64,000 bases of DNA from a virus, in the IMG/VR virus record IMGVR_UViG_3300045988_152778, positions 1-64,000 of that record. One strand, written 5' to 3'. Below the pieces are notes generated by a model. The model was not told the DNA's origin. It saw nothing but the letters and a program-made list of their open reading frames with translations, and searched no databases. Both the position numbers and the translations under genes were made by a program. Position 1 is the first letter of the stretch, and each line of letters opens with the position of its first letter. Below are positions 2,521 through 25,738 of this stretch, piece by piece.

Positions 2521-3504
2521 TCAAAAGGCGACAAGCTTCGTCGCCGACTCAATGTTATAACCATCTTTATCGAGACACACATAAATACAGCCCTGCTGCT
2601 GAGAGTTAACCAACGCGCCGTCACCATATCTCATTTTCTGTGTCTCACACGCCGCACCCTGCTCATACATAGTGGTGTTTCCGATTTTATACGAACCGAG
2701 CCTGTGCGTATGCGCCATTACAAGGCAGTTGAAATCATACCCTTCATTGCGGAACCACAGCACAGCTTTCTCCGCCGTCTTCATAGGTGAACTGCTAAAA
2801 GCCTTCGGGTGAACAAACATTACATGACCTATCTGCGAAAACCACTCGCCAGTATAAACGACTTCGATATCATCGAATGTCTCACGAAGCGGCTCAAACC
2901 ACGTCTTAATATGATTGCGACGGTCGTAATGATAGAAGCCATCAACGAAGATGTAGTCCAGTGCCGTCTCAGGCATAAGCTCCTGAAGGTCTGAATCGAG
3001 GTGGTTGGCGAGATATGCTCCGAGGCGAAGCTCATGGTTGCCGTAGTTTGCGATGACCTTCTTCGGTTTTATGTAGTCAATAAGGTCTATAATGTACTGC
3101 CGACCCTCAACCAGTTCCTCGATACACGGTATGCGATACGACTTCGAGAATTTGGATATCGACTGACAATCAAATATATCTCCGTTGAGCTGTAGGATGT
3201 CTACACGCCCGACATACTTTGAAAATGTCTCTATAGGCTTTGCGAACGGGAAGTGCAGGTCTGATATAGACAGAACCCTCGTCGCCACGCCGCGCTCAGC
3301 TATCTCACGTTCATAGTTGCGACCGCGATTGAAAGCGGCAAATTCTTTTCGATAAGCACTCTCGCCGAGCGTCTGACCGCTTTCTGTATTGAGCAACTCG
3401 GCTATCTGGTCGCAAGTGAGACCATAAATTTTCTTGTTGTCGAAGAGCCGAACGAAGTAGTCAACATAGGACTCTCCGCTCTGCTTCTTAGCGAAGTCTT
3501 CCAT
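2521..3504 (-). CDS. Calcineurin-like metallophosphoesterase (327 aa)
   Basis: Metallophosphatase motifs D-x-H (SISDLHFP), GDIFD and GNHE (VIANYGNHELR), plus a later AHTH. Lies between the HU-like gene and the putative RNA polymerase. Confidence 0.75.
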   Translation of the reverse strand: MEDFAKKQSGESYVDYFVRLFDNKKIYGLTCDQIAELLNTESGQTLGESAYRKEFAAFNRGRNYEREIAERGVATRVLSISDLHFPFAKPIETFSKYVGRVDILQLNGDIFDCQSISKFSKSYRIPCIEELVEGRQYIIDLIDYIKPKKVIANYGNHELRLGAYLANHLDSDLQELMPETALDYIFVDGFYHYDRRNHIKTWFEPLRETFDDIEVVYTGEWFSQIGHVMFVHPKAFSSSPMKTAEKAVLWFRNEGYDFNCLVMAHTHRLGSYKIGNTTMYEQGAACETQKMRYGDGALVNSQQQGCIYVCLDKDGYNIESATKLVAF

Positions 3505-3858: not shown

Positions 3859-6540
3859 TTACGCGAAATATTTATATCGAGTGTATCTCTTTCCATATAG
3901 CTCAACATCACCCTCGTCGTCTTCTGCGAGCAGTCCGATAGGTTCTGCACCCGCTTCGAGAACCTCATAGAACGAGGTGTTGGGGTAGCCAAAGAGTATG
4001 TTAAATATCTTACGCTGAATCTGAGAATAACGAGGTTCTTCTATCTGGCGCAGGAGGTAGACCATATCGCTCTTGGTGAACGACATATTGCCCACATACT
4101 CTACGCACTCCTGCCTGATATCACAACACTGCATCTGTTTGACGGAAGATTCTATGTCCGAAGCATACACACTCTTTATCTCATTTGTCATGTCTGTTAC
4201 GGCATTGATGACGCGGATGACTTTCTCGTACTGTCTACGATGAACATCTATGCCGTTACCCACAAGAGCAGAGAAGGGAAGATACTCCTGCTTCTTTCCT
4301 ATCTCTTCTCTCTGAGCCCTGTACGAGTTAATACAAGTCTGCACATGATCCATGGTCGTCAAATGCTTCTTGTAATTCTTTCGCTTGCGGTCATAGTAAC
4401 CTTTGCCGATATCCTTCGCCTTGAAGAAGTTAGGTTTAATGGCTCTTCCGTCGTCGCCCTCAATCTTATATTTATCACGCAGTCGGCGAAGCTCCTTAGC
4501 ATTATTGATATTGAACTCTTTCTTTGCCTTGTCGATTTCAATGCCGCTCATAATATTCAAGATACATACATCTTTATATATTTCCTCAATATCACTATAA
4601 CTGCCGCCACGATTGAGGACATCCCATATGCGGGTATTGAGCTCCTGACTGAGGTTGATGATATCGCCTATAAGATTGTTGCTCGTTTTAACATCAAGGT
4701 CAACCTGCTCGTCGTGAGTATATCTGCGTTTTTTCTTAACGGACGAGACATCCGGAACTGCTATCAAAAACTTACCTTCGTTCTTAAGCGCGGCATTGAT
4801 AAGGTGAAGATTATCCGTAACAAGCGAGGTATCTGAATCAAAATCGCAGCCCGATAATTCGTTTAAGACATTTTCGCCAATACTGTTTATACAGACTATC
4901 TCGTTCGTCAGATTAAAGTAGCGGTCGATCTCGCTACACTCCACATTCGTCGGAACCCACACATTGCTCATTGAGATATGGGGGCTGCGCGAACCTACGA
5001 GCCTCTGCCCATACCCGAACCTCTTCGTATGTATGTTGCCAACACCCAGCACCGACACGCCGTCGAACTTGCCGATGCTCGCCTGTAACATCTCGATTGG
5101 ATTGCCAAACAAGGTTTCGTAATTACCCTCGACAAGCACATGACCGAGCCTAAGATTTTTTGTAAAAGACTTAAGAATATCTATCTTGAAGTCATGATAA
5201 AGCTTCGTCTGCGCAAATCTGTCATTGAGACCGAGAAGCTTATATACAACATCATTCTTCGACTCGGCAGGGGAGATATCAAATTCGTCTTCTATCGGAT
5301 ATTTGATATGGTAGCGCAGAACTGCGGGGTCTGTTCTGATAGCTGTCATATAGTCAAATGTCTCCTTAAGGAACGCCGCCGTCTCAGCCTTGTCCATCTG
5401 CAAGCTGTTGAGAAGCTGATAGTGCGTCTGCACCATGCGTCCATCAAAGAAGTGAGTTGGCTTATCATACTTAACAACGCCAAAAGTATTGTCGATGTGC
5501 TTCATCCAATCGTTTATCGTCCCGAACTTCAGATACTTGATGCTGCTCGGCGTGGTTACTATCTTTATATCTTCCACACGCTTCGCTTTAGTGTAGCCCT
5601 TTAGCTGGCTTACCTCTGTTATGCCGTGGTCGGCAAACCACTGCTGCAAGTTTGTATTGAAGCAACAGCATTTAAAGAAGAGGTTGCGGAGTAGTATCAT
5701 GCCCTTATCGCTGTATTTGCCCATAGCTGATATATCTATAAGCCCCTGTCCGTCCCAGATAGAGTTGGTTATCTGCTCGTCTTTTTCTTCGGCGATTAGG
5801 TGGTCGCCATCTTCGCTGACGGACATAACCTTATCGAAGAATTTGCTCTCGTAGTCGTCTATCACGAGAATGTTCTCGGGGTTTATTTCCAGTATATCAA
5901 TAATAGAGCTTGACGGCAGAGAGATATACGACTCAAGCGCAGCAAGGTCTACCTCCTCACCCTCGGCGACTTTCAGTCCACACATCTCCCACTTGTGCAT
6001 ACGAGCATACAGCTTCTCGTCAATAAAGAGACACTTGCCAACGCGAGAACTGCCGCTTGACCTCTTCCACCTGACATACCTTACTCCATTACACACAAAG
6101 CCGTCATTATACAGTGTCCTGCGCAGCTCCGCTGTGCTCTTCAGCGTCTTAGGTGTTTTGATAAGCGTGTATACGCCACCTTCAAAACCGAAGTATTTAC
6201 CGAGCACCTCGTCAGATACCGGATATTCCACAGGCTGTCCAAGTATTATTCCCACCAGCTCGCCGTCTTTTATAGCCACGCAGTCATTGAAGTTAAGGTC
6301 TGAGTCTTTATGTCCAAAGCGAATATACCTATTTCTGCCGGCTTTATTAAACTCCGCCACCGAGTATTTAAAGGTTACATTTATTACGCGCGAGGTATAC
6401 TCTTTCTTTCTTCCGTAAAAACTGAAGTTAGTGCGGCGGTACACTTTCTCATAAACCTCGCGCAGTTTTATCTGATCTAAACTGTAATCGAGTGTGTTGG
6501 CATATCGTCTATAATTGACCTTGCCGTCTTTATCCACCAA
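3859..6540 (-). CDS. Large (893 aa) protein; candidate YonO-like single-chain two-barrel RNA polymerase
   Basis: No Walker motifs. Contains RSPHISMSNVWVP...(about 35 aa)...CDFDSDTSLV. This resembles the beta-prime double-psi-beta-barrel segment RQPSLHRMSIQAFEP...NADFDGDQMAVH of multisubunit RNA polymerases and the DxDGD motif of YonO/QDE-1-type polymerases. An HU-like gene is adjacent, as yonN is to yonO in Bacillus prophage SPbeta. The assignment rests on motif resemblance only. Confidence 0.45.
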   Translation of the reverse strand: MVDKDGKVNYRRYANTLDYSLDQIKLREVYEKVYRRTNFSFYGRKKEYTSRVINVTFKYSVAEFNKAGRNRYIRFGHKDSDLNFNDCVAIKDGELVGIILGQPVEYPVSDEVLGKYFGFEGGVYTLIKTPKTLKSTAELRRTLYNDGFVCNGVRYVRWKRSSGSSRVGKCLFIDEKLYARMHKWEMCGLKVAEGEEVDLAALESYISLPSSSIIDILEINPENILVIDDYESKFFDKVMSVSEDGDHLIAEEKDEQITNSIWDGQGLIDISAMGKYSDKGMILLRNLFFKCCCFNTNLQQWFADHGITEVSQLKGYTKAKRVEDIKIVTTPSSIKYLKFGTINDWMKHIDNTFGVVKYDKPTHFFDGRMVQTHYQLLNSLQMDKAETAAFLKETFDYMTAIRTDPAVLRYHIKYPIEDEFDISPAESKNDVVYKLLGLNDRFAQTKLYHDFKIDILKSFTKNLRLGHVLVEGNYETLFGNPIEMLQASIGKFDGVSVLGVGNIHTKRFGYGQRLVGSRSPHISMSNVWVPTNVECSEIDRYFNLTNEIVCINSIGENVLNELSGCDFDSDTSLVTDNLHLINAALKNEGKFLIAVPDVSSVKKKRRYTHDEQVDLDVKTSNNLIGDIINLSQELNTRIWDVLNRGGSYSDIEEIYKDVCILNIMSGIEIDKAKKEFNINNAKELRRLRDKYKIEGDDGRAIKPNFFKAKDIGKGYYDRKRKNYKKHLTTMDHVQTCINSYRAQREEIGKKQEYLPFSALVGNGIDVHRRQYEKVIRVINAVTDMTNEIKSVYASDIESSVKQMQCCDIRQECVEYVGNMSFTKSDMVYLLRQIEEPRYSQIQRKIFNILFGYPNTSFYEVLEAGAEPIGLLAEDDEGDVELYGKRYTRYKYFA

Positions 6541-6940
6541 CGAATAACCTGCGTCGGGGTATAGCTCATTTGTTATGTATATATCCTTAGCGTCGATACC
6601 CGGTATATATATTGTATTACCTATAGTTAATTCTCCTCATCCATATCCGTATTTATGGCTTGATTTCCATAGTCTATGTAAGCGACCTCATCCCAACTGC
6701 CGTGGCAGGGGTAGTCGTTGTCGTCGTTGCCGCAGCAGTTAATCCACGGGCAACCCTCACAAAATCCTCTGTTCAACTTCTTTGTTTAATCCTTTCTTTA
6801 AAATGCCGTTCACACCTTTCCTTATATCAGCCATATCTCATTTCGTCCGAGTTTTGCTGTCTATATATTACAAACTTCGGTTTAAAGTGTCCCGGTAGGG
6901 TAGTTTATGCCCCGAGTTTCAATGTTTTATTTTTATGTAT

Positions 6941-7822: not shown

Positions 7823-8588
7823 TCACGCGCATACCATAGGTGCGCCGATAAACCCCTTTTCTACAAGCTTCTTATGAAAGAATTGTTTGCCCTCCGGGGT
7901 GAAGAACACCCTTATCTTCACAATATCAGATTTCGTGTACCAGTCCTTGGTCTCGAATAAACCCTCGTTGCTCTTCTTGGCGTAAGGGCGAAGCTGCTGA
8001 GCGGGAGTACGGTATAGATATTTTTCATCTATCAGAAAGTTAACGAACTTACGCTCAGAGATACCAAGTTCTTTGGCGGTGTCTCGAAGCCCTGTACATT
8101 TATTAGGGGCTAACAAACGTATCATAGAAGTCCGCCTTGGGCTGAGCGACATCGAGCTTTGATTCCAAGACGTTCGTTTTGTCACGCAGCTTAAGAAGCT
8201 CTTCTGCAAACGCAAACATGACATTGGGGTCTTTCTGACATTTAGCGAGAAGCTCATCGGTCATGTAGCCGCCCGTCTTACGAATGGCGGGAAGGATATC
8301 TGCTGTAACCCAGCGTTTAAAAGCTTTGGCATTAGGGAGCTTGCTCGAAATGATGAGACTGTAAAGACCCGATTCATTGATAATAGCCATTTCCTGTGCT
8401 CCACCAAGGGTGTCACATTTCGTTACACCCTTATCCTCGGTGTCTACATGGTCTATCATTGCTTTGCGTGGATTACTATACCCGAGCACCGCAGCCACAT
8501 CTTTTCCCACAAACCACAGCTCGCCGTCAATAGTTATGGTGCGGATTTCTCCAAATTCCTCATTGTTAAATGCTGTCAGTTCATTCAT
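7823..8588 (-). pseudogene. Bro-N/KilA-C phage antirepressor disrupted by a +1 frameshift (Bro-N part 8103..8588; KilA-C remnant about 7823..8102)
   Basis: Frame 1 reads MNELTAFNNEEFGEIRTITIDGELWFVGKDVAAVLGYSNPRKAM... (Bro-N) and ends ...KADFYDTFVSP-TAA. A +1 frame continues NKCTGLRDTAKELGISERKFVNFLIDEKYLY... (KilA-C). The break lies at CCC TAA T after a C4 run. An intact paralog sits at 28903..29706. Confidence 0.75.
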
Positions 8589-9002: not shown

Positions 9003-10233
9003 TCTGAACCCTCTCCATCCAATCTTTTAAAAGTGTCCTCATTCTTCTGCTCGGCACATACAGCCATATCTCTTCTCCGCGTCTTATAGCCGATCTCCAT
9101 ATCCACTGCAACATAGTTGAAAGAGCGTACATATCTTGGTCTACCTCTACACCAAATTTCTCATACACACGCCTCTCCGCGACATTCATAAACAGGTTAA
9201 CGGCGTAGGCAAGATACCTCTTATTAATGTATGAATTAGTAGCCCTCTCGTTGAAGACGACGTAACTCTTGGTGTAACCTTTGCCCTTAACCTTGTTACA
9301 GGCGCTCTTATAGGTTCCCCACATACGCTCGTCCGCAGGTGAGTTCTTCCATATATGCTTGTAGCAGTTGGCTATATGATTCTTAACAGCCTTGAGCTCG
9401 CCATCCTCACCAGCCTTGCGTCTCTGATACCAATTCATAGACAGCGCATGGGGCGGGTCGCCTATACGGTTGAGCTTTGGCGACTCTACTATATGTATAA
9501 GGTCTTTGATGTGCTTGGTGTATTCCGGCACATAATCGGTATTATCCGAAAAACGGTAACCCCCGTCCTTTAGCGACACACCTATATATGTATAGGGGAT
9601 TTTATAAATCTTCATAAAATAGCAAAGCGCCTGTCCGGTAAACAAATACGTCAGCACGAACACCTCATCGAACGAGGTCAACAGCTCCTGCGGCAGAGCC
9701 CAGTAATAAAGCTTCTGCCCCTTTTGTCCATCAACACACAAAATATCGCGGGAGCGGAACATCTTCATCTCGTCCTCAAATTTACCTGAGTCGTACAGCT
9801 TGTCTGTCGCCCGATATGTCGTGCCGTCTGATTCTAAAAAGCCTGTAGCGACAAGCCCGCCGACATCATTGGTCTTCATTTGACTCTCGATAAGAATATC
9901 CAAGCTCTCGTCTATGATGAGGGTATAGCCAAGCTCTCTAATCATCGCCAGCGTATCACGGTTATAATTTCTGAAAGCCGCGTGGGTTGTCGTTATGTTG
10001 CGCCCCTCGCTTATAAGAGCTGCTGTGTGCTCTGTCTTTCTGAAATGGTATTCGCTCAGCTTGTTGCTCGGCTCGACGAAGTGCAGCTCCGGGCAACCCT
10101 CTTTGATACGATTGCTCTCCGCCAGATACGGCGTGATGTAAATGAATTTCTTCTCCTTGTGTTCGTTCATATAGGTAATGGCAGCTTCGGTTTTGCCGGT
10201 ACCCATAATCGCATCACATACTTTGACTTTGAT
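8971..10233 (-). CDS. P-loop NTPase of unknown function; probable non-AUG (ATC) start 27 nt upstream of the first ATG
   Basis: The first ATG gives MGTGKTEAA, which splits a Walker A. The in-frame upstream codons give ...AIMGTGKT = [AG]x4GK[ST]. A perfect AGGAGG lies 8 nt upstream of an in-frame ATC (10231..10233), with no ATG/GTG/TTG between. Walker B LIIDESLD is present. Confidence 0.55.
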   Translation of the reverse strand: MKVKVCDAIMGTGKTEAAITYMNEHKEKKFIYITPYLAESNRIKEGCPELHFVEPSNKLSEYHFRKTEHTAALISEGRNITTTHAAFRNYNRDTLAMIRELGYTLIIDESLDILIESQMKTNDVGGLVATGFLESDGTTYRATDKLYDSGKFEDEMKMFRSRDILCVDGQKGQKLYYWALPQELLTSFDEVFVLTYLFTGQALCYFMKIYKIPYTYIGVSLKDGGYRFSDNTDYVPEYTKHIKDLIHIVESPKLNRIGDPPHALSMNWYQRRKAGEDGELKAVKNHIANCYKHIWKNSPADERMWGTYKSACNKVKGKGYTKSYVVFNERATNSYINKRYLAYAVNLFMNVAERRVYEKFGVEVDQDMYALSTMLQWIWRSAIRRGEEIWLYVPSRRMRTLLKDWMERVQNGDKDEDDYE

Positions 10234-10831: not shown

Positions 10832-11310
10832 TAAGACGATCGTATACATATAGAACTTGTAGAAGCTTTCTTCGAAGACGTCAGCCTGTTATAGGCTTAT
10901 ACCACGAACGAAAGACCGCTCGTAAGGTAGACTTTAGGGATTTTAGCCTGTACCACATCTTTATCTCGGATGCTCGTAGGGGTAACTTTGTGCGTAGAGC
11001 GGGCTTTTACCAGTTTTTTTAAAATTTTAAAAAGCACCAATCTACCTGACCCGTAGAAGATACCCTCCACTATGGGCGGGATTTGTGTAGTTCTGAGGGT
11101 CTATTTTGACGACGTGTGAGTGGGGTTGATTAACTAAGCGGTTTTTCACGATTATTTTTCTGCTATATGTTTAAAATAGCCCCCGTGGGGCTATAAATCC
11201 ATAAAGGCGTATTTTATGGATTATTATACCTATATAGTCGAGGTATACAAGCTATGATATTTTAGTGTTATATAAGCATTATTTTTTTGTTGTATTTACA
11301 ACGCCGTCTA

Positions 11311-11355
11311 CACGTCAACGTCAACACTGCATAATATCACCGTCAACACGTCAAT
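11311..11355. repeat. Iteron-like direct repeats (GTCAAC/GTCAAT x4)
   Basis: cACGTCAACGTCAACActg...ccGTCAACACGTCAATtac, beside a TTGTATTTACAA palindrome in an AT-rich tract. Confidence 0.5.
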
Positions 11356-11380
11356 TACATCTTATATGCTAAAATAAAAA

Positions 11381-11421
11381 AATACCTATACATCAAAAAG
11401 ATAAATTCCGTGTGTATAGGT
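11381..11421. promoter_or_regulatory. 12-bp perfect inverted repeat AATACCTATACA-N17-TGTATAGGTATT (candidate operator); a third TATAGGTAGGTA copy follows at 11428..11439
   Basis: Read directly from sequence. A dyad-symmetric site typical of dimeric repressor/regulator binding. Confidence 0.45.
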
Positions 11422-11543
11422 ATTATATTATATATTATATAGGTAGGTATATATCCTATAATGTCGGGACGGCTACACCGTCCCCATCGGCGGCACTTGT
11501 GCCGCCTAATAGACGCGCGAACATCTATTATTCTGCGCAAGAA

Positions 11544-11894
11544 TTATTTATCGTTGATTGGTAGGCGTAGAACGGCGCGGAGTGCATCGGGGGATATATG
11601 CGCGGCAGCGGCTACTACTGACACCGCCGTGTTCAGGTCAGGCGGCTCAGGTTCAGGGGTCGGGCGTTCGAGTAGAGCGTCTATAGATATATTTAAATAA
11701 TCGCATATACGGGCAAGCGTGATATAAGACGGCGCGCCGCCGTGCGTCATTTTAGTTAAAGCAGCATGATTGATGTTTAATTCTTGTAACATAGTTTTTA
11801 CCGTGATATTTTGTCTCGTGCATTCTTTTTTAATCTTTTCTGCAATAATAGTGGGGTCATAATTGTTAGTATTGCACAAGTTCATCAGCTCCAT
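11544..11894 (-). CDS. XRE/CI-like helix-turn-helix transcriptional repressor
   Basis: 116 aa. HTH_3-type segment ITVKTMLQELNINHAALTKMTHGGAPSYITLARICDYLNISIDALLE. Minus strand, divergent from the plus-strand early region; the usual lysogeny-switch position. Confidence 0.8.
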   Translation of the reverse strand: MELMNLCNTNNYDPTIIAEKIKKECTRQNITVKTMLQELNINHAALTKMTHGGAPSYITLARICDYLNISIDALLERPTPEPEPPDLNTAVSVVAAAAHISPDALRAVLRLPINDK

Positions 11895-11968
11895 TGCATA
11901 GGCTTATTGTGTATATGTTACGAAGATGTGTAAAATCTCTAAAAAGTTCATTATTTTTCTTTTTCGAG

Positions 11969-11997
11969 TATAACAATGCACTTTTTGGTGCTATAAT
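11969..11997 (+). promoter_or_regulatory. Candidate early (lytic) promoter with extended -10 (TGcTATAAT)
   Basis: TATAAT at 11992..11997 with TG at -15/-14 and ATAACA at -35 (16-nt spacer). Divergent from the repressor gene. The first convincing plus-strand gene starts about 900 nt downstream. Confidence 0.45.
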
Positions 11998-12009
11998 GTG
12001 CTTGCACTT

Positions 12010-12095
12010 GAGGGACAAGCCCCACGGACAAGCCGCCGACAACGAGCCGTTGAGCCGTGCGGACAAGGCGCGCGGGGTAAGCCCCAACAAGTACG
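12010..12095. repeat. Degenerate 9-11-mer direct repeats (GGACAAGCC / CGACAACGAGCC / GGACAAGGCGC / CCCAACAAG)
   Basis: GGGACAAGCCCCACGGACAAGCCGCCGACAACGAGCCGTTGAGCCGTGCGGACAAGGCGCGCGGGGTAAGCCCCAACAAG, immediately downstream of the candidate early promoter. Confidence 0.5.
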
Positions 12096-12913
12096 CAATA
12101 TATAAAATTATACACCAATGCCGCAAAAAGTCAAGCGGCGAAGGGCTTGCCCATAACAACAAGAAAGAGGGTGATTAATTTTTGCGCGGTTAGTCGGCTT
12201 TTAGCGGATTAATACGCGACAAGCGGAACACATAAATATTATTGTATGTCCTTGCAATACTTTGATATTGCTATCACGCTATGACGGCTTTATAGCTATC
12301 AGCCCGGGACGGCGCGCGCCGTTGCGCGTTTATCGTATGCAATAATATTGTAAAATATCGGTAACGGCGGCGGGACACTCTCATCCGTTACTATGCCGCA
12401 TAGGGGCGCTATGCGGGGCGAATAAAGGCATTTTATCACAAGTCCGTAAAAGGTCAAAGAAATAACTGCCATTTAAGCGGGTGTATTATCTGTTTAAATA
12501 CTTTGATTTTGTTGTGCTAAAGTGGAGAGTCCGGGGACGGTTGGAAGCCGTCCGAACCTTTTGAGTTCCTTTGCCGTTGGTGCTTGATATATACGCGATA
12601 AGTATATCGGCAATAAGAAAAAAATAAACCGTGCATTAATGCTATATTGATATTTTAGCTTTACACCGCCCGCGCTATTTCTCAGGAGATACGGACAACG
12701 GACGGTAATTTTTATTTTTAGGAATAAATATTTATTGTAAAGCGGGGATGTTAATGTTTCATTTTTGGAAAATGCACGGTGACGGGTAACAATTGATACG
12801 TTGGTACAATAGGACATTTTAACACATTCCGAGCGCGTGAGCTGTTATATGTTCGCGCGTTCTTTAATGTGCTAAAAGCATATAAAATATTTAAATAAGG
12901 ACGGTAAAAAATC

Positions 12914-14053
12914 ATGAAAAAGACAACAGAAAAGAAAGCATTACGGAATATTACGGAAATTAAAGCAGAGCTTGAAACACGCGCTAACGCCTACAACGCG
13001 GCAATAAATGCCGACGATACAAAGGCGGCAGAGCTCGAAAAGCTCGACAATGAAACATCAGAGCTTGAAAAAGAGTATGCCCGCGCCGCGTTTCATGCAA
13101 CGGCTCTCGAACTGCTCGACAACCCCGCGCCTATGCTTGCGGCGGCGACGGCTCTAACTTTCGAGACGCTGAAACACAAAGATAAAGAGGACGAAAACGG
13201 CATAAAATCGCGTGAACTCGTCGCGGCTGAACGCCCGCTTGATTTTGTCGCACTTGAATCATTCTTTGTCGAGCGCGGAAAGAAATTCGGCGCGGAATCT
13301 GCATGGGTTTACAAAGTCGCGGCTTTTAATCGTTTACTCTGCATGAGAACGGCGCAAAGTATCGGCGCGGATGTGAAAACAGTCGCGGAAAAGTTCGCTA
13401 CACCTACACAAGCCCGCGATATCAATCTCGGCAAAACTCCGACAAGCAACACACAATTACTCAAGCAATTACAGATGATAATTGACTCCATGCTTTATGT
13501 AGAGGGCGAAAAGGGCAATATCTATAAAGCAAATTCGCATGATGTCGGATATCTGTTATCCCTCTACGCGAAGAAGGGGCGCGGCGTTCTGAGTGTTGCC
13601 GCGGCACGCCCGAAGTATCTTGAAAAGCTCATAGCGGAAATACTTCACCGCATAGTCACCGAAAAGTCCTATAATATCGAGTTCAAGGAAAAGAAAGACC
13701 GCGCAAGCGGCAAGATAGATCCTAAACCCGCCGGGGCTGTTGAATCCGCGAGAAAATCCGCGAAAAAATCGAGCGCAAAGGCTCAGACGGAAATTGAACG
13801 CGCAAGACGCGCCGCCGATAAAGTTCGCAAAAAAGCAAAGGCGGAGGCGAAAAAAATTCAAGCTGAGAACGGCGGCGCGTCTGTAGCTGCGCCGTGGCTG
13901 CTCGACGCGATGCGTAAACTCGCCGAAGAGAAAAAAGCCGGAAAAATCACGGACGAAGAATTTAATAAATATCTTGAGTACGCCGAAAATAGAGACATCG
14001 AGGAAGGCGGCATAGGATTCTACGGTGTAAACAGCGAGGAAGAATCCGCATAA
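12914..14053 (+). CDS. Hypothetical early protein (379 aa); Ala/Lys-rich charged C-terminal region
   Basis: Long ORF with RBS AAGGACGG-N9-ATG. No recognisable catalytic motifs. Confidence 0.6.
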   Translation: MKKTTEKKALRNITEIKAELETRANAYNAAINADDTKAAELEKLDNETSELEKEYARAAFHATALELLDNPAPMLAAATALTFETLKHKDKEDENGIKSRELVAAERPLDFVALESFFVERGKKFGAESAWVYKVAAFNRLLCMRTAQSIGADVKTVAEKFATPTQARDINLGKTPTSNTQLLKQLQMIIDSMLYVEGEKGNIYKANSHDVGYLLSLYAKKGRGVLSVAAARPKYLEKLIAEILHRIVTEKSYNIEFKEKKDRASGKIDPKPAGAVESARKSAKKSSAKAQTEIERARRAADKVRKKAKAEAKKIQAENGGASVAAPWLLDAMRKLAEEKKAGKITDEEFNKYLEYAENRDIEEGGIGFYGVNSEEESA

Positions 14054-14090
14054 AAAATTTTACGCTCAAAAGTGAAATTAAATCAAAATT

Positions 14091-14141
14091 AAAAATCCCC
14101 GTCTGAAATGAAATGAAAATCAGTTTTGACGGGGATTTTAT
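14091..14141 (+). terminator. Possible rho-independent terminator (A-tract-CCCCGTC ... GACGGGG-ATTTTAT)
   Basis: 7-bp GC-rich stem with a large (24-nt) loop, flanked by A- and T-tracts. Confidence 0.4.
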
Positions 14142-25709: not shown

Positions 25710-25738
25710 TTGACAAGAGAATTTTTTAGGACTATAAT
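25710..25738 (+). promoter_or_regulatory. Consensus sigma-70-type promoter TTGACA-N17-TATAAT
   Basis: TTGACA (25710..25715), 17-nt spacer, TATAAT (25733..25738). Upstream of the membrane-protein and recombinase genes. Confidence 0.7.

Follow-up and report, generated by a model that had tools for sequence, protein, structure and literature searches.

The subject of this analysis is a tract of about 910 nucleotides (nt) without coding signal in the viral record IMGVR_UViG_3300045988_152778, of which positions 1 to 64,000 (64,000 nt, the window) were analysed. The tract lies between a leftward gene for a CI/Cro-type helix-turn-helix (HTH) protein of 116 amino acids (aa) and the ATG (12914) of the first rightward gene, which encodes a protein of 379 aa. 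Family matches suggest that the HTH gene is likely to encode the repressor; its start codon is not preceded by a Shine-Dalgarno sequence. The 379-aa protein has no Pfam or PHROG match and offers no functional clue. The window fits a temperate phage of ~90 kb from a Firmicutes-type gut host with sigma-A promoters, a host type suggested by strong AGGAGG ribosome-binding sites and a GC content of 44%. A blastn search of 11200-14100 against 50,697 phage records returned zero matches, showing that the region has no match in known phage DNA of that collection. The features of the locus, read from left to right, are collected in Table 1.

Table 1. Features of the window discussed in the text (positions are those of the window).
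Feature	Position	Strand	Remarks
Integrase gene	253-1407	minus	adjoins tRNA-Asn (93-168)
Hairpin 1	11466..11484		GC-rich, like its neighbour at 11489-11506; both 3' of the HTH gene
CI/Cro-type HTH gene, 116 aa	11544..11894	minus	Pfam HTH_26, E 4e-8; PHROG transcriptional regulator/repressor families
Inverted repeat AAAAAGTTCATT ... AATGCACTTTTT	11941..11986		12-bp arms 11941-11952 / 11975-11986; flanks the -35 of P1
Putative early promoter P1	11970..11997	plus	ATAACA-16-TATAAT with extended -10 TGcTATAAT; -10 at 11992-11997
E1, GC-rich multi-hairpin 5' domain	12003..12095	plus	GGACAAGCC-type repeats; closed by a long-range helix
Predicted convergent promoter	12134->12107	minus	TTGACT-16-TATAAT, 11/12 consensus positions
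Three small hairpins	12254..12330	plus	12254-12271, 12286-12297, 12311-12330 (loop GCCGUU)
Swappable cassette, ~290 nt	12330..12619	plus	ends in hairpin 3; hairpins 12363-12392, 12392-12420; 96-nt extended hairpin 12429-12524
Hairpin 3	12535..12553	plus	structure kept in both cassette types, L052 and L063; sequence not
D domain, ~150-nt three-way junction	12629..12779	plus	outer helix 12629-12637 / 12771-12779; 16-bp helix 12649-12665 / 12736-12752
Two-tier hairpin	12817..12877	plus	lower stem 12817-12828 / 12866-12877; internal loop; upper stem 12831-12842 / 12851-12862
First rightward gene, 379 aa	12914..14053	plus	preceded by a gene-free RNA-rich tract throughout its family

Relatives of the 379-aa gene were collected in two sets, one of 23 IMG/VR contigs and one metagenome-assembled genome (MAG) and one of 25 human-gut metagenome contigs. 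In both (~50 loci, 74-98% protein identity; single loci are given as L numbers below) the tract accompanies the gene, and the gap between the HTH gene and the 379-aa gene measured 865-1040 nt in 24/24 IMG/VR and MAG loci. The leader is about as similar among these relatives as the adjacent 379-aa gene is. A further set of eight more distant homologues with contigs (31-53% identity) was used for comparison, and the leader is still recognisable in L052 and L063 (53-55% protein identity). The family is narrow, consisting of one gut phage lineage and few distant relatives: all 25 extra loci from the metagenome scan belonged to the same lineage, and IMG/VR pattern scans with two conserved leader motifs returned the same contigs only, plus four chance matches.

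We asked whether the gap codes for protein. In alignments of the adjacent gene, variable columns fell on the three codon positions as 53/26/176 (p 2e-33) and there were no indels. The corresponding counts for three leader blocks were 32/39/34, 17/17/18 and 35/36/39, nearly all gap runs were not multiples of three, and frame-breaking indels occurred throughout. Six-frame clustering of open reading frames (ORFs) showed that those of the gap are not kept among relatives, varying in length and frame, and the tract gave no Pfam or PHROG matches. A missed gene, such as a split or unusual cro, might still be suggested by the ORFs of 57-107 aa that can be drawn in the window. The only one of constant length (57 aa, minus strand) changes by codon position as 8/10/9, however, with nearly all of its changes non-synonymous, and the 57-aa and 107-aa ORFs were both rejected as genes after negative coding tests. 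With no codon-phase bias, with frame-breaking indels and with no ORF kept or matched to a family, a missed gene is hardly credible. Thus, the earlier sequence-only reading of this DNA, which had noted that no Cro-like ORF is present, is correct as far as ATG 12914 for want of a conserved ORF, codon-phase bias or family match, and its long untranslated early leader downstream of a repressor-proximal promoter is borne out by a tract that is both non-coding and highly structured.

The structure is evident from folding and from its strand asymmetry. The 870-nt tract folded at -285.8 kcal/mol (z -4.07). In alifold the plus strand was favoured over the minus strand for the cassette (-121.6 vs -103.7) and for the D domain (-104.3 vs -92.0), and the long helices are rich in plus-sense G.U pairs, an asymmetry that also favours the plus strand. 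Rfam scans of the window at gathering thresholds, of 11100-13000 at E <= 10 and of close relatives (15 at gathering threshold, 6 at E <= 5) found nothing besides tRNA and one weak twister-sister match in the window (discussed below), and the relatives gave no twister-sister match. Together, the comparisons indicate that the 0.9-kb tract is a conserved, non-coding, plus-sense structured RNA.

The tract is built from modules. The segments 12096-12330 and 12619-12913 are common to all loci, and the gap is otherwise a mosaic: 12330-12619 occurs in two unrelated versions and the first ~100-170 nt after the promoter in three. The version of the cassette found in the window is present in 14/25 IMG/VR and MAG loci (window included), and a shorter unrelated version in the other 11. 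At a finer scale, 12135-12225 is itself a patchwork of an L012-type start (GGCGAAGGGCTTGCCCAT), a unique insert (AACAACAAGAAAGAGGGTGATTAATTTTTG) and L002-type sequence.

Among the inner modules, the block of three small hairpins is supported by pairing: its 17 pairs are 98.9% paired, 11 of them are changed on both sides, and 0/500 shuffles were as good. Its linkers are conserved and single-stranded (UAUCACGCUAUGAC and AUCAGCC). The block is kept in L052 and L063 with fully compensated stems, for example GCAAUA/UAUUGC to GCUUUA/UAAAGC and GGCGCGC/GCGCGUU to GCACGCU/AGCGUGU, and the loop GCCGUK and the linker UAUCACGCUAUGACGG are invariant there. The helices of the cassette have one or two covarying pairs each. 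In the D domain, whose junction carries a UCAG-loop hairpin (12676-12691) and a UUAG-loop hairpin (12711-12728), 44 pairs are 98.1% paired, 11 pairs vary only between U-A and U.G or between G-C and G.U, and ~10% of the cells are G.U, which would be A.C mismatches on the opposite strand. Such variation fits a plus-sense RNA. The outer helix of D occurs in four compensating versions (CGUGCAUU/AAUGCACG, UAUUCAUU/AAUGAAUA, CGUUAUUC/GAAUAACG and CGUUGCC/GGCAACG), which we documented directly from the sequences and not by pair counting, two versions being out of register in the MAFFT alignment. A candidate antiterminator pairing of CGCGCU (12672-12677) with the 5' arm of the terminator-like stem described below was dropped, as it is not kept in L052 or L063.

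These patterns bear on whether the conserved features act as DNA, for instance as a replication origin, iterons, operators or a packaging site. The tract does hold direct and inverted repeats, with candidate operator palindromes at 11941-11986 and, in relatives, ATATGCTAAAAGCATAT after the two-tier hairpin, and the lower stem of that hairpin has mismatches of the A.C type. Against this, many helices keep their pairing through U-A to U.G and G-C to G.U changes that work on the plus strand only, at least 20 base pairs of unrelated sequence show compensating double changes, and the tract sits between promoters, distant from the replication genes at 38-43 kb. We therefore consider a purely DNA-level role very doubtful.

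The last module before the first gene is the two-tier hairpin, which ends 36 nt before the ATG. Its 12-bp upper stem (12831-12862) is followed by the U-run TTCTTTAAT within UUCUUUAAU, so that a GC-rich stem-loop and U-run of the intrinsic terminator kind lie on the transcribed strand; this is the strongest plus-strand terminator-like site in 12.8-32 kb. Across 17 sequences every pair of the upper stem is kept (100% paired); 6 pairs have changed on both sides, and plus-sense G.U pairs occur. Many close relatives, as well as L052 and L063, have the U-run TTTTTTAAT or TTTTTAAT. No further copies of the lower-stem motif were found above chance in the window. Directly after the hairpin, L001, L052 and L063 read ATATGCTAAAAGCATAT, a 17-bp palindrome with 7-bp arms and of operator size. 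The window has AATGTGCTAAAAGCATAT at this position (12866-12883), overlapping the 3' strand of the lower stem, and a DNA-level role of the site is possible.

The two-tier hairpin extends to the distant homologues. It ends 21-41 nt (mostly 32-38) before the start codon in every distant relative examined, with a lower stem of 6-11 bp, a small asymmetric internal loop and an upper stem of 11-16 bp, and these hairpins have z-scores of -5.1 to -9.5 (11 hairpins, 10 loci). Across the gene family the upper stem is 94% paired, 9/12 pairs are changed on both sides, and 0/500 shuffles were as good.

The gene family also connects the tract with catalogued RNAs. A gene-free upstream tract of at least 540-1040 nt was present in 7/8 distant homologues; the contig of the remaining one, L064, ends 127 nt upstream. 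RAGATH-16 (RF03047) was matched upstream of the gene in 4/8 (L048, 91.7 bits; L051, 75.2; L066, 83; L068, 39.2), RAGATH-4 (RF03153) in L048 (89.9) and L066 (68), both below the threshold of 104.4 with E <= 1e-13, and a type-P1 twister ribozyme in L067 (54.8 bits, E 2.6e-10). L063 gave chance-level Rfam matches only, and L052 gave none. RAGATH stands for RNAs associated with genes associated with twister and hammerhead ribozymes; the motifs and the twister neighbourhoods were described by Weinberg et al. (2015, 2017) and reviewed in 2019 (PMC6765202), where the reason for the associations "has not yet been determined". A genomic association of this kind, upstream of the same gene class, is thus found here, and it had been missed by the sequence-only reading. 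The Rfam RAGATH-4 model seems to stop in mid-helix: in L048 (4903-4913) and L066 (552-562) its conserved 3' tail (GUUUAUCAUUGA) pairs with downstream sequence and so provides the 5' strand of the lower stem in the two-tier hairpin. L048 additionally has a direct repeat of ~57 nt (cggcagagcgaaagccgccgccgcacagaccccctttacggtctagagtgacgg) that runs into an assembly gap at 4018-4126, just upstream of its RAGATH-16/RAGATH-4 tract, and a RAGATH-36 match with a tRNA at 8186-8586. Because gene-free tracts, RAGATH or twister RNAs and the two-tier hairpin recur upstream of homologues, the leader is best filed as a local, uncatalogued form of the RNA-rich region known from the "genes associated with twister and hammerhead ribozymes".

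The same data raise the possibility of one or more stand-alone non-coding RNAs (ncRNAs), made from P1 or internal promoters, ended by the terminator at 12831-12862 and acting in trans like ROOL, GOLLD or RAGATH RNAs, with the early genes expressed by a weak promoter or leakage. Several features favour this: the terminator at the end of the tract looks canonical, the modules include a cassette that can be exchanged, the fold is both ornate and conserved, and the RAGATH motifs that occupy this place in relatives are classed in Rfam as small RNA genes. But no convincing promoter was found between the terminator and the ATG, several relatives lack the U-run, and neither ROOL nor GOLLD was matched. 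Furthermore, the two-tier hairpin is nearly fixed at ~32-41 nt from the start codon in nearly all relatives, and this distance suggests a link in cis with the gene. We regard stand-alone RNAs as a tentative alternative, possible and worth keeping in mind but not likely.

The promoters at the left end of the tract suggest how the RNA could be made. The extended -10 of P1 (TGnTAnnnT) is found at the equivalent place in 23/26 loci with sequence there, despite divergent flanks; among the exceptions, L024 lacks one, and in L003 a fitting TGCTAATAT lies beyond the stretch that was scanned. The inverted repeat around the -35, which a repeat search scored as 20-nt arms with 80% complementarity, is kept where the HTH gene is similar and differs where the HTH type is another, suggesting a candidate operator pair. 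The GGACAAGCC repeats downstream of P1 were rejected as operators of the HTH protein, since L013 has an 88% identical HTH gene but another E1 type.

A second promoter, unnoticed in the sequence-only reading, faces P1 from within the leader. TTGACT-16/17-TATAAT occurs in all 26 close loci, with spacers that differ in sequence, and L063 has TTGCCA-17-TATAAT; the convergent promoter is kept in 27/27 sequences, the window included, and no relative that retains this part of the leader lacks it. Judged from its consensus, it would give transcripts that start at ~12100 and cross E1 and P1 in antisense before entering the HTH gene, and no minus-strand terminator-like site was found between this promoter and the HTH gene. 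A leftward promoter that reads across the lytic start into the repressor gene, the arrangement of coliphages 186 and P2, is thereby present as far as sequence can tell. In relatives, TCAAGCG boxes are repeated beside the -35 of the convergent promoter. Other promoter-like sites of the leader were rejected: the -35 of the minus-strand site 12457->12430 covaries with its partner as an RNA helix (12450-12459 / 12501-12510), and the extended -10 look-alikes TGCTAAAGT and TGCTATATT sit within helices.

The overlap of the two predicted transcripts is the 5' domain E1. The sequence-only reading had counted four to five degenerate copies of a direct repeat in this promoter-proximal part. Four copies are indeed present in 12013-12083 (exact GGACAAGCC at 12013 and 12026, GGACAAGGC at 12061 and GGGTAAGCC at 12075), but they are not free repeats: they form the loops and stems of one multi-hairpin domain, with the hairpins CGG-ACAAG-CCG, an irregular one of 9 bp (12036-12062) and GCG-GACAAGG-CGC. 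In E1, 96% of cells are paired, and covariation is confined to two pairs of the central hairpin (5-6/14 sequences). The domain occurs as three swappable sequence types, and unrelated types replace it in 10/26 loci typed. L007, L012 and L018, which have a 5' domain type of their own (type C), also carry a second HTH gene (~72 aa) on the same strand between the 116-aa HTH gene and the leader (675-890, 2806-3021 and 316-531, respectively).

The weak Rfam match in the region lies on E1. The twister-sister model RF02681 was matched in full length at 12008-12090, which is the GGACAAGCC tract, with 19.6 bits against a gathering threshold of 34; the E value was 0.47 in 1.9 kb and 0.035 in 141 nt, roughly the chance level for 64 kb. 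E1 shares with twister-sister the outline of P1 stem, internal loop and P2 stem, the three hairpins and the CAAG-type loops. The ribozyme requires an L1 strand GCAAG, whose G5 contacts the scissile phosphate, and a strand GCUCAU with the C-A cleavage step, together with a docking SL4 loop (PMC5660989). This catalytic core is absent from E1: its L1 strands, ACAAG and UAAG, have neither G5 nor a C-A step, and the hairpin aligned to P4 has the loop CGUUGA and variants, with no GUGCAAGUC-type SL4 loop. Nor are the features kept in relatives, as in type-A relatives a continuous helix replaces the internal loop, and the one that was scanned (L004) had no Rfam match. We therefore rejected E1 as a twister-sister ribozyme on core nucleotides, subthreshold score and absence from relatives. 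More generally, a self-cleaving module might process the leader, with E1 as a divergent twister-sister-like four-way junction or with a new class in blocks B, C and D. The layout of E1, the full-length match and the neighbourhood of the gene family (twister in L067, RAGATH elsewhere) speak for such a module; the chance-level score, the missing core nucleotides, the continuous helix of type-A relatives and the replacement of E1 in so many loci make it rather improbable.

The sequence-only reading had built its model on three hairpins with a shared GGACGG/CCGUCC stem, which it took for repeated nut/put-type antitermination elements or processing sites, with the GGACAAGCC repeats as accessories. 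The TATAAT that it placed before the first hairpin is there (11457-11462), as is hairpin 1 (GGGACGG-CTACA-CCGTCCC). This hairpin is not in the leader, however; it lies 3' of the HTH gene, ~500 nt upstream of P1, and on the plus strand it would be antisense to the HTH gene. An unrelated hairpin region replaces it in 13/23 sequences compared. The 3' flank of the HTH gene (11466-11506) accordingly comes in two unrelated versions, one with the GGGACGG and GGCGGCAC hairpins and one with a CACGGC-GUA-GCCGUG hairpin, and no clear U-run comes after either version, whichever the strand. For hairpin 2, the palindrome ACGGCGC/GCGCCGT exists at 12309-12322 inside GGGACGG..., but only the GGACGG half is shared and there is no CCGUCC; what relatives conserve is another register (12311-12317 / 12324-12330, loop GCCGTT). 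Hairpin 3 was confirmed as GGACGG (12535-12540)-TTGGAAG-CCGTCC (12548-12553), 2 nt from where it had been placed. Its stem sequence changes freely among relatives (GGAGG/CCUCC, GGAGAUGGG/CCCAUCUUCC, GGAGACGG/CCGUCUUCC and GGAGACGG/CCGUCU).

GGACGG is enriched in the window (30 copies vs 17.4+-4.3 expected, 7/30 of them in 11467-12904), and perfect GGACGG-N-CCGTCC hairpins number 2 vs 0 expected. The variants of hairpins 1 and 3 nevertheless assort independently: because the four combinations occur in 7, 2, 6 and 7 loci, the two hairpins are unlinked. The conservation in relatives that a single shared stem would call for was thus not found, hairpin 3 changing its stem and the hairpin-1 version being present in part of the loci only. 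We conclude from these comparisons that the shared GGACGG stems are incidental, and that hairpin 3 is a real element of which GGACGG is not the signal.

Features of nut sites were also looked for. BoxA (CGCUCUUUA-like) was at chance level in the window (73 vs 66.7 expected), its only leader match being the terminator tail. No boxB-type loop conserved across relatives was found, and no N-type antiterminator gene, the N-terminus of the 379-aa protein of the first gene not being arginine-rich. Like put RNAs, E1 is promoter-proximal; its hairpins number at least three, however, other sequence types take its place in some relatives, and a second copy was not seen. The hairpins exist and are unlikely by chance in the window, a terminator-like hairpin precedes the first gene and E1 directly follows the promoter, all of which the nut/put model would expect. 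With hairpin 1 outside the transcription unit, hairpin 2 conserved in another register, the stem of hairpin 3 free to change, boxA and an N-like gene wanting, and the next 19 kb without further strong plus-strand terminators that would call for processive antitermination, we judge this model unlikely. What survives of it is the general idea: given the terminator-like hairpin before the first gene, terminator read-through, antitermination or processing is reasonable for an early leader.

Taken together, these data lead us to a working model, which we hold to be probable, with moderate confidence: the tract from P1 to the ATG would be a plus-sense, non-coding, structured and modular early leader RNA, or an ncRNA, of ~870 nt. 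P1, beside the CI-like repressor gene and flanked by the candidate operator pair, would fire once repression is lifted. The first ~95 nt of its transcript (E1) would also be transcribed antisense from the convergent promoter, through P1 into the repressor gene, and this promoter would be the source both of the repressor mRNA and of an RNA antisense to E1; the face-to-face arrangement would be 186/P2-like, with a structured overlap of ~100 nt. Repressor expression could thereby be coupled to early transcription by interference or RNA pairing. Transcription of the early genes would have to pass the two-tier hairpin, whose upper stem and U-run may stop part of it and yield a discrete structured RNA; transcripts that read through would form the full hairpin, which is T7-type RNase III-like, and the structured RNA may then be separated from the mRNA. 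Stopping or processing at the hairpin would set early-gene expression.

Several points weigh against this model. Start sites, termination and processing are read from consensus and structure. L048, L066, L067 and L068 have no U-run behind the upper stem, so termination is not a property of the whole family, and in the close family the lower stem has A.C mismatches, which are G.U on the minus strand. Weak promoter candidates, none of them convincing, lie between the two-tier hairpin and the ATG. For the D domain and E1, the covariation comes from a small number of events within the close relatives. For E1, alifold slightly favours the minus strand (-56.8 vs -52.0), and E1 may for this reason act in the antisense RNA. 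Finally, the window is linked to RAGATH and twister by position and gene family and not by RNA homology, as it has no Rfam match except tRNA; the RAGATH-16 and RAGATH-4 models gave no match in 11100-13000 (E <= 10) or in close relatives.

It is conceivable, though we would not expect it, that at least one leader module (D, the three-hairpin block, the cassette or E1) is a new functional RNA class of twister, hammerhead and RAGATH neighbourhoods, for example a self-cleaving or polymerase-modifying one. If so, the phage lineage would show a role for such RNAs, that of an early leader gating or processing early transcripts at the lysis-lysogeny switch. The biological role of bacterial and phage twister and hammerhead ribozymes and of RAGATH RNAs is so far unexplained, and here the equivalent RNA-rich tract is mapped downstream of a repressor-adjacent promoter, with a predicted convergent promoter over its 5' end and a two-tier hairpin at its 3' end. 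The tract therefore offers an inducible prophage, its promoters and terminator defined, in which such a role could be put to a concrete test, and several uncatalogued RNA motifs supported by covariation. If the motifs are ordinary leader hairpins, the locus would still be a clean RNA-heavy switch without a Cro-like gene.

A few observations concern the rest of the window. Its other genes include those for a DNA polymerase, a primase-helicase, a Pnkp/RNA ligase, NrdD and a tail protein. The motif TATAGGTA occurs in 9 copies vs 1.74+-1.29 expected. Four of these, in both orientations, are clustered at 11227-11445 in the AT-rich 1.3-kb gap between a YonV_C-type gene and the HTH gene, and others lie just upstream of leftward genes (1531-1538, integrase; 6618-6625, 893-aa gene; 10170-10177, 411-aa gene), so that the motif has the look of a binding site for a regulator that acts on leftward promoters. 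The same gap holds (C)GTCAAC(A)C direct repeats (cgtctacacgtcaacgtcaacac ... caccgtcaacacgtcaa, 11300-11355), which may be iterons or binding sites. Two perfect sigma-70 consensus promoters (TTGACA-17-TATAAT, 12/12) were found in the rightward gene block, at 25710-25738 (+) and 27567->27539 (-), the latter with an extended -10.

Comparison with known systems places the locus among several of them. HK022 put and lambda nut are, like E1, structured RNAs that follow an early promoter and lie upstream of a terminator to be passed. Unlike lambda nut, the leader has no boxA or boxB and the phage no N-like gene. HK022 put consists of two stem-loops at both early operons, whereas here one domain has at least three hairpins; moreover, this 5' domain is swapped for unrelated types among close relatives, and a single strong terminator lies downstream.

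T7-type RNase III processing sites have a two-tier hairpin layout with an asymmetric internal loop, and the two-tier hairpin of the leader resembles them: it has ~22-27 bp in two tiers with a small asymmetric internal loop, and it stands between an upstream RNA and the next gene. It differs in that its upper tier and U-run also fit an intrinsic terminator, and in that the host is Gram-positive-like.

The face-to-face lytic and lysogenic promoters of coliphages 186 (pR/pL) and P2 (Pe/Pc) are arranged as they appear here. The repressor gene is left of the lytic promoter, and converging, overlapping transcripts result from a leftward promoter that lies downstream of the lytic start and reads back over it. 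The overlap is 62 bp in 186 and ~35 bp in P2, compared with ~100-170 nt here, where it is a GC-rich structured module. Unlike in 186 and P2, the leftward promoter is near-consensus and no Apl/Cox/Cro-type gene follows the lytic promoter.

ROOL and GOLLD (PMC5737381) are, like the tract, large (~0.9 kb), ornate and conserved ncRNAs of Firmicutes-type prophages. Their models had no match in the window (gathering) or in the region (E <= 10), and the tract differs from them in being modular with swappable parts, in its 5' leader position and in not lying beside tRNAs. Closest in setting are the RAGATH and twister neighbourhoods, which have the same kind of gene-free RNA-rich tract directly upstream of the same gene family in phages, and the same two-tier hairpin before the ATG. 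The RNAs themselves are different, the window matching none of those models even at E <= 10, and, unlike in those neighbourhoods, the tract described here has an exact position, with a repressor-proximal promoter on one side and the first early gene on the other.

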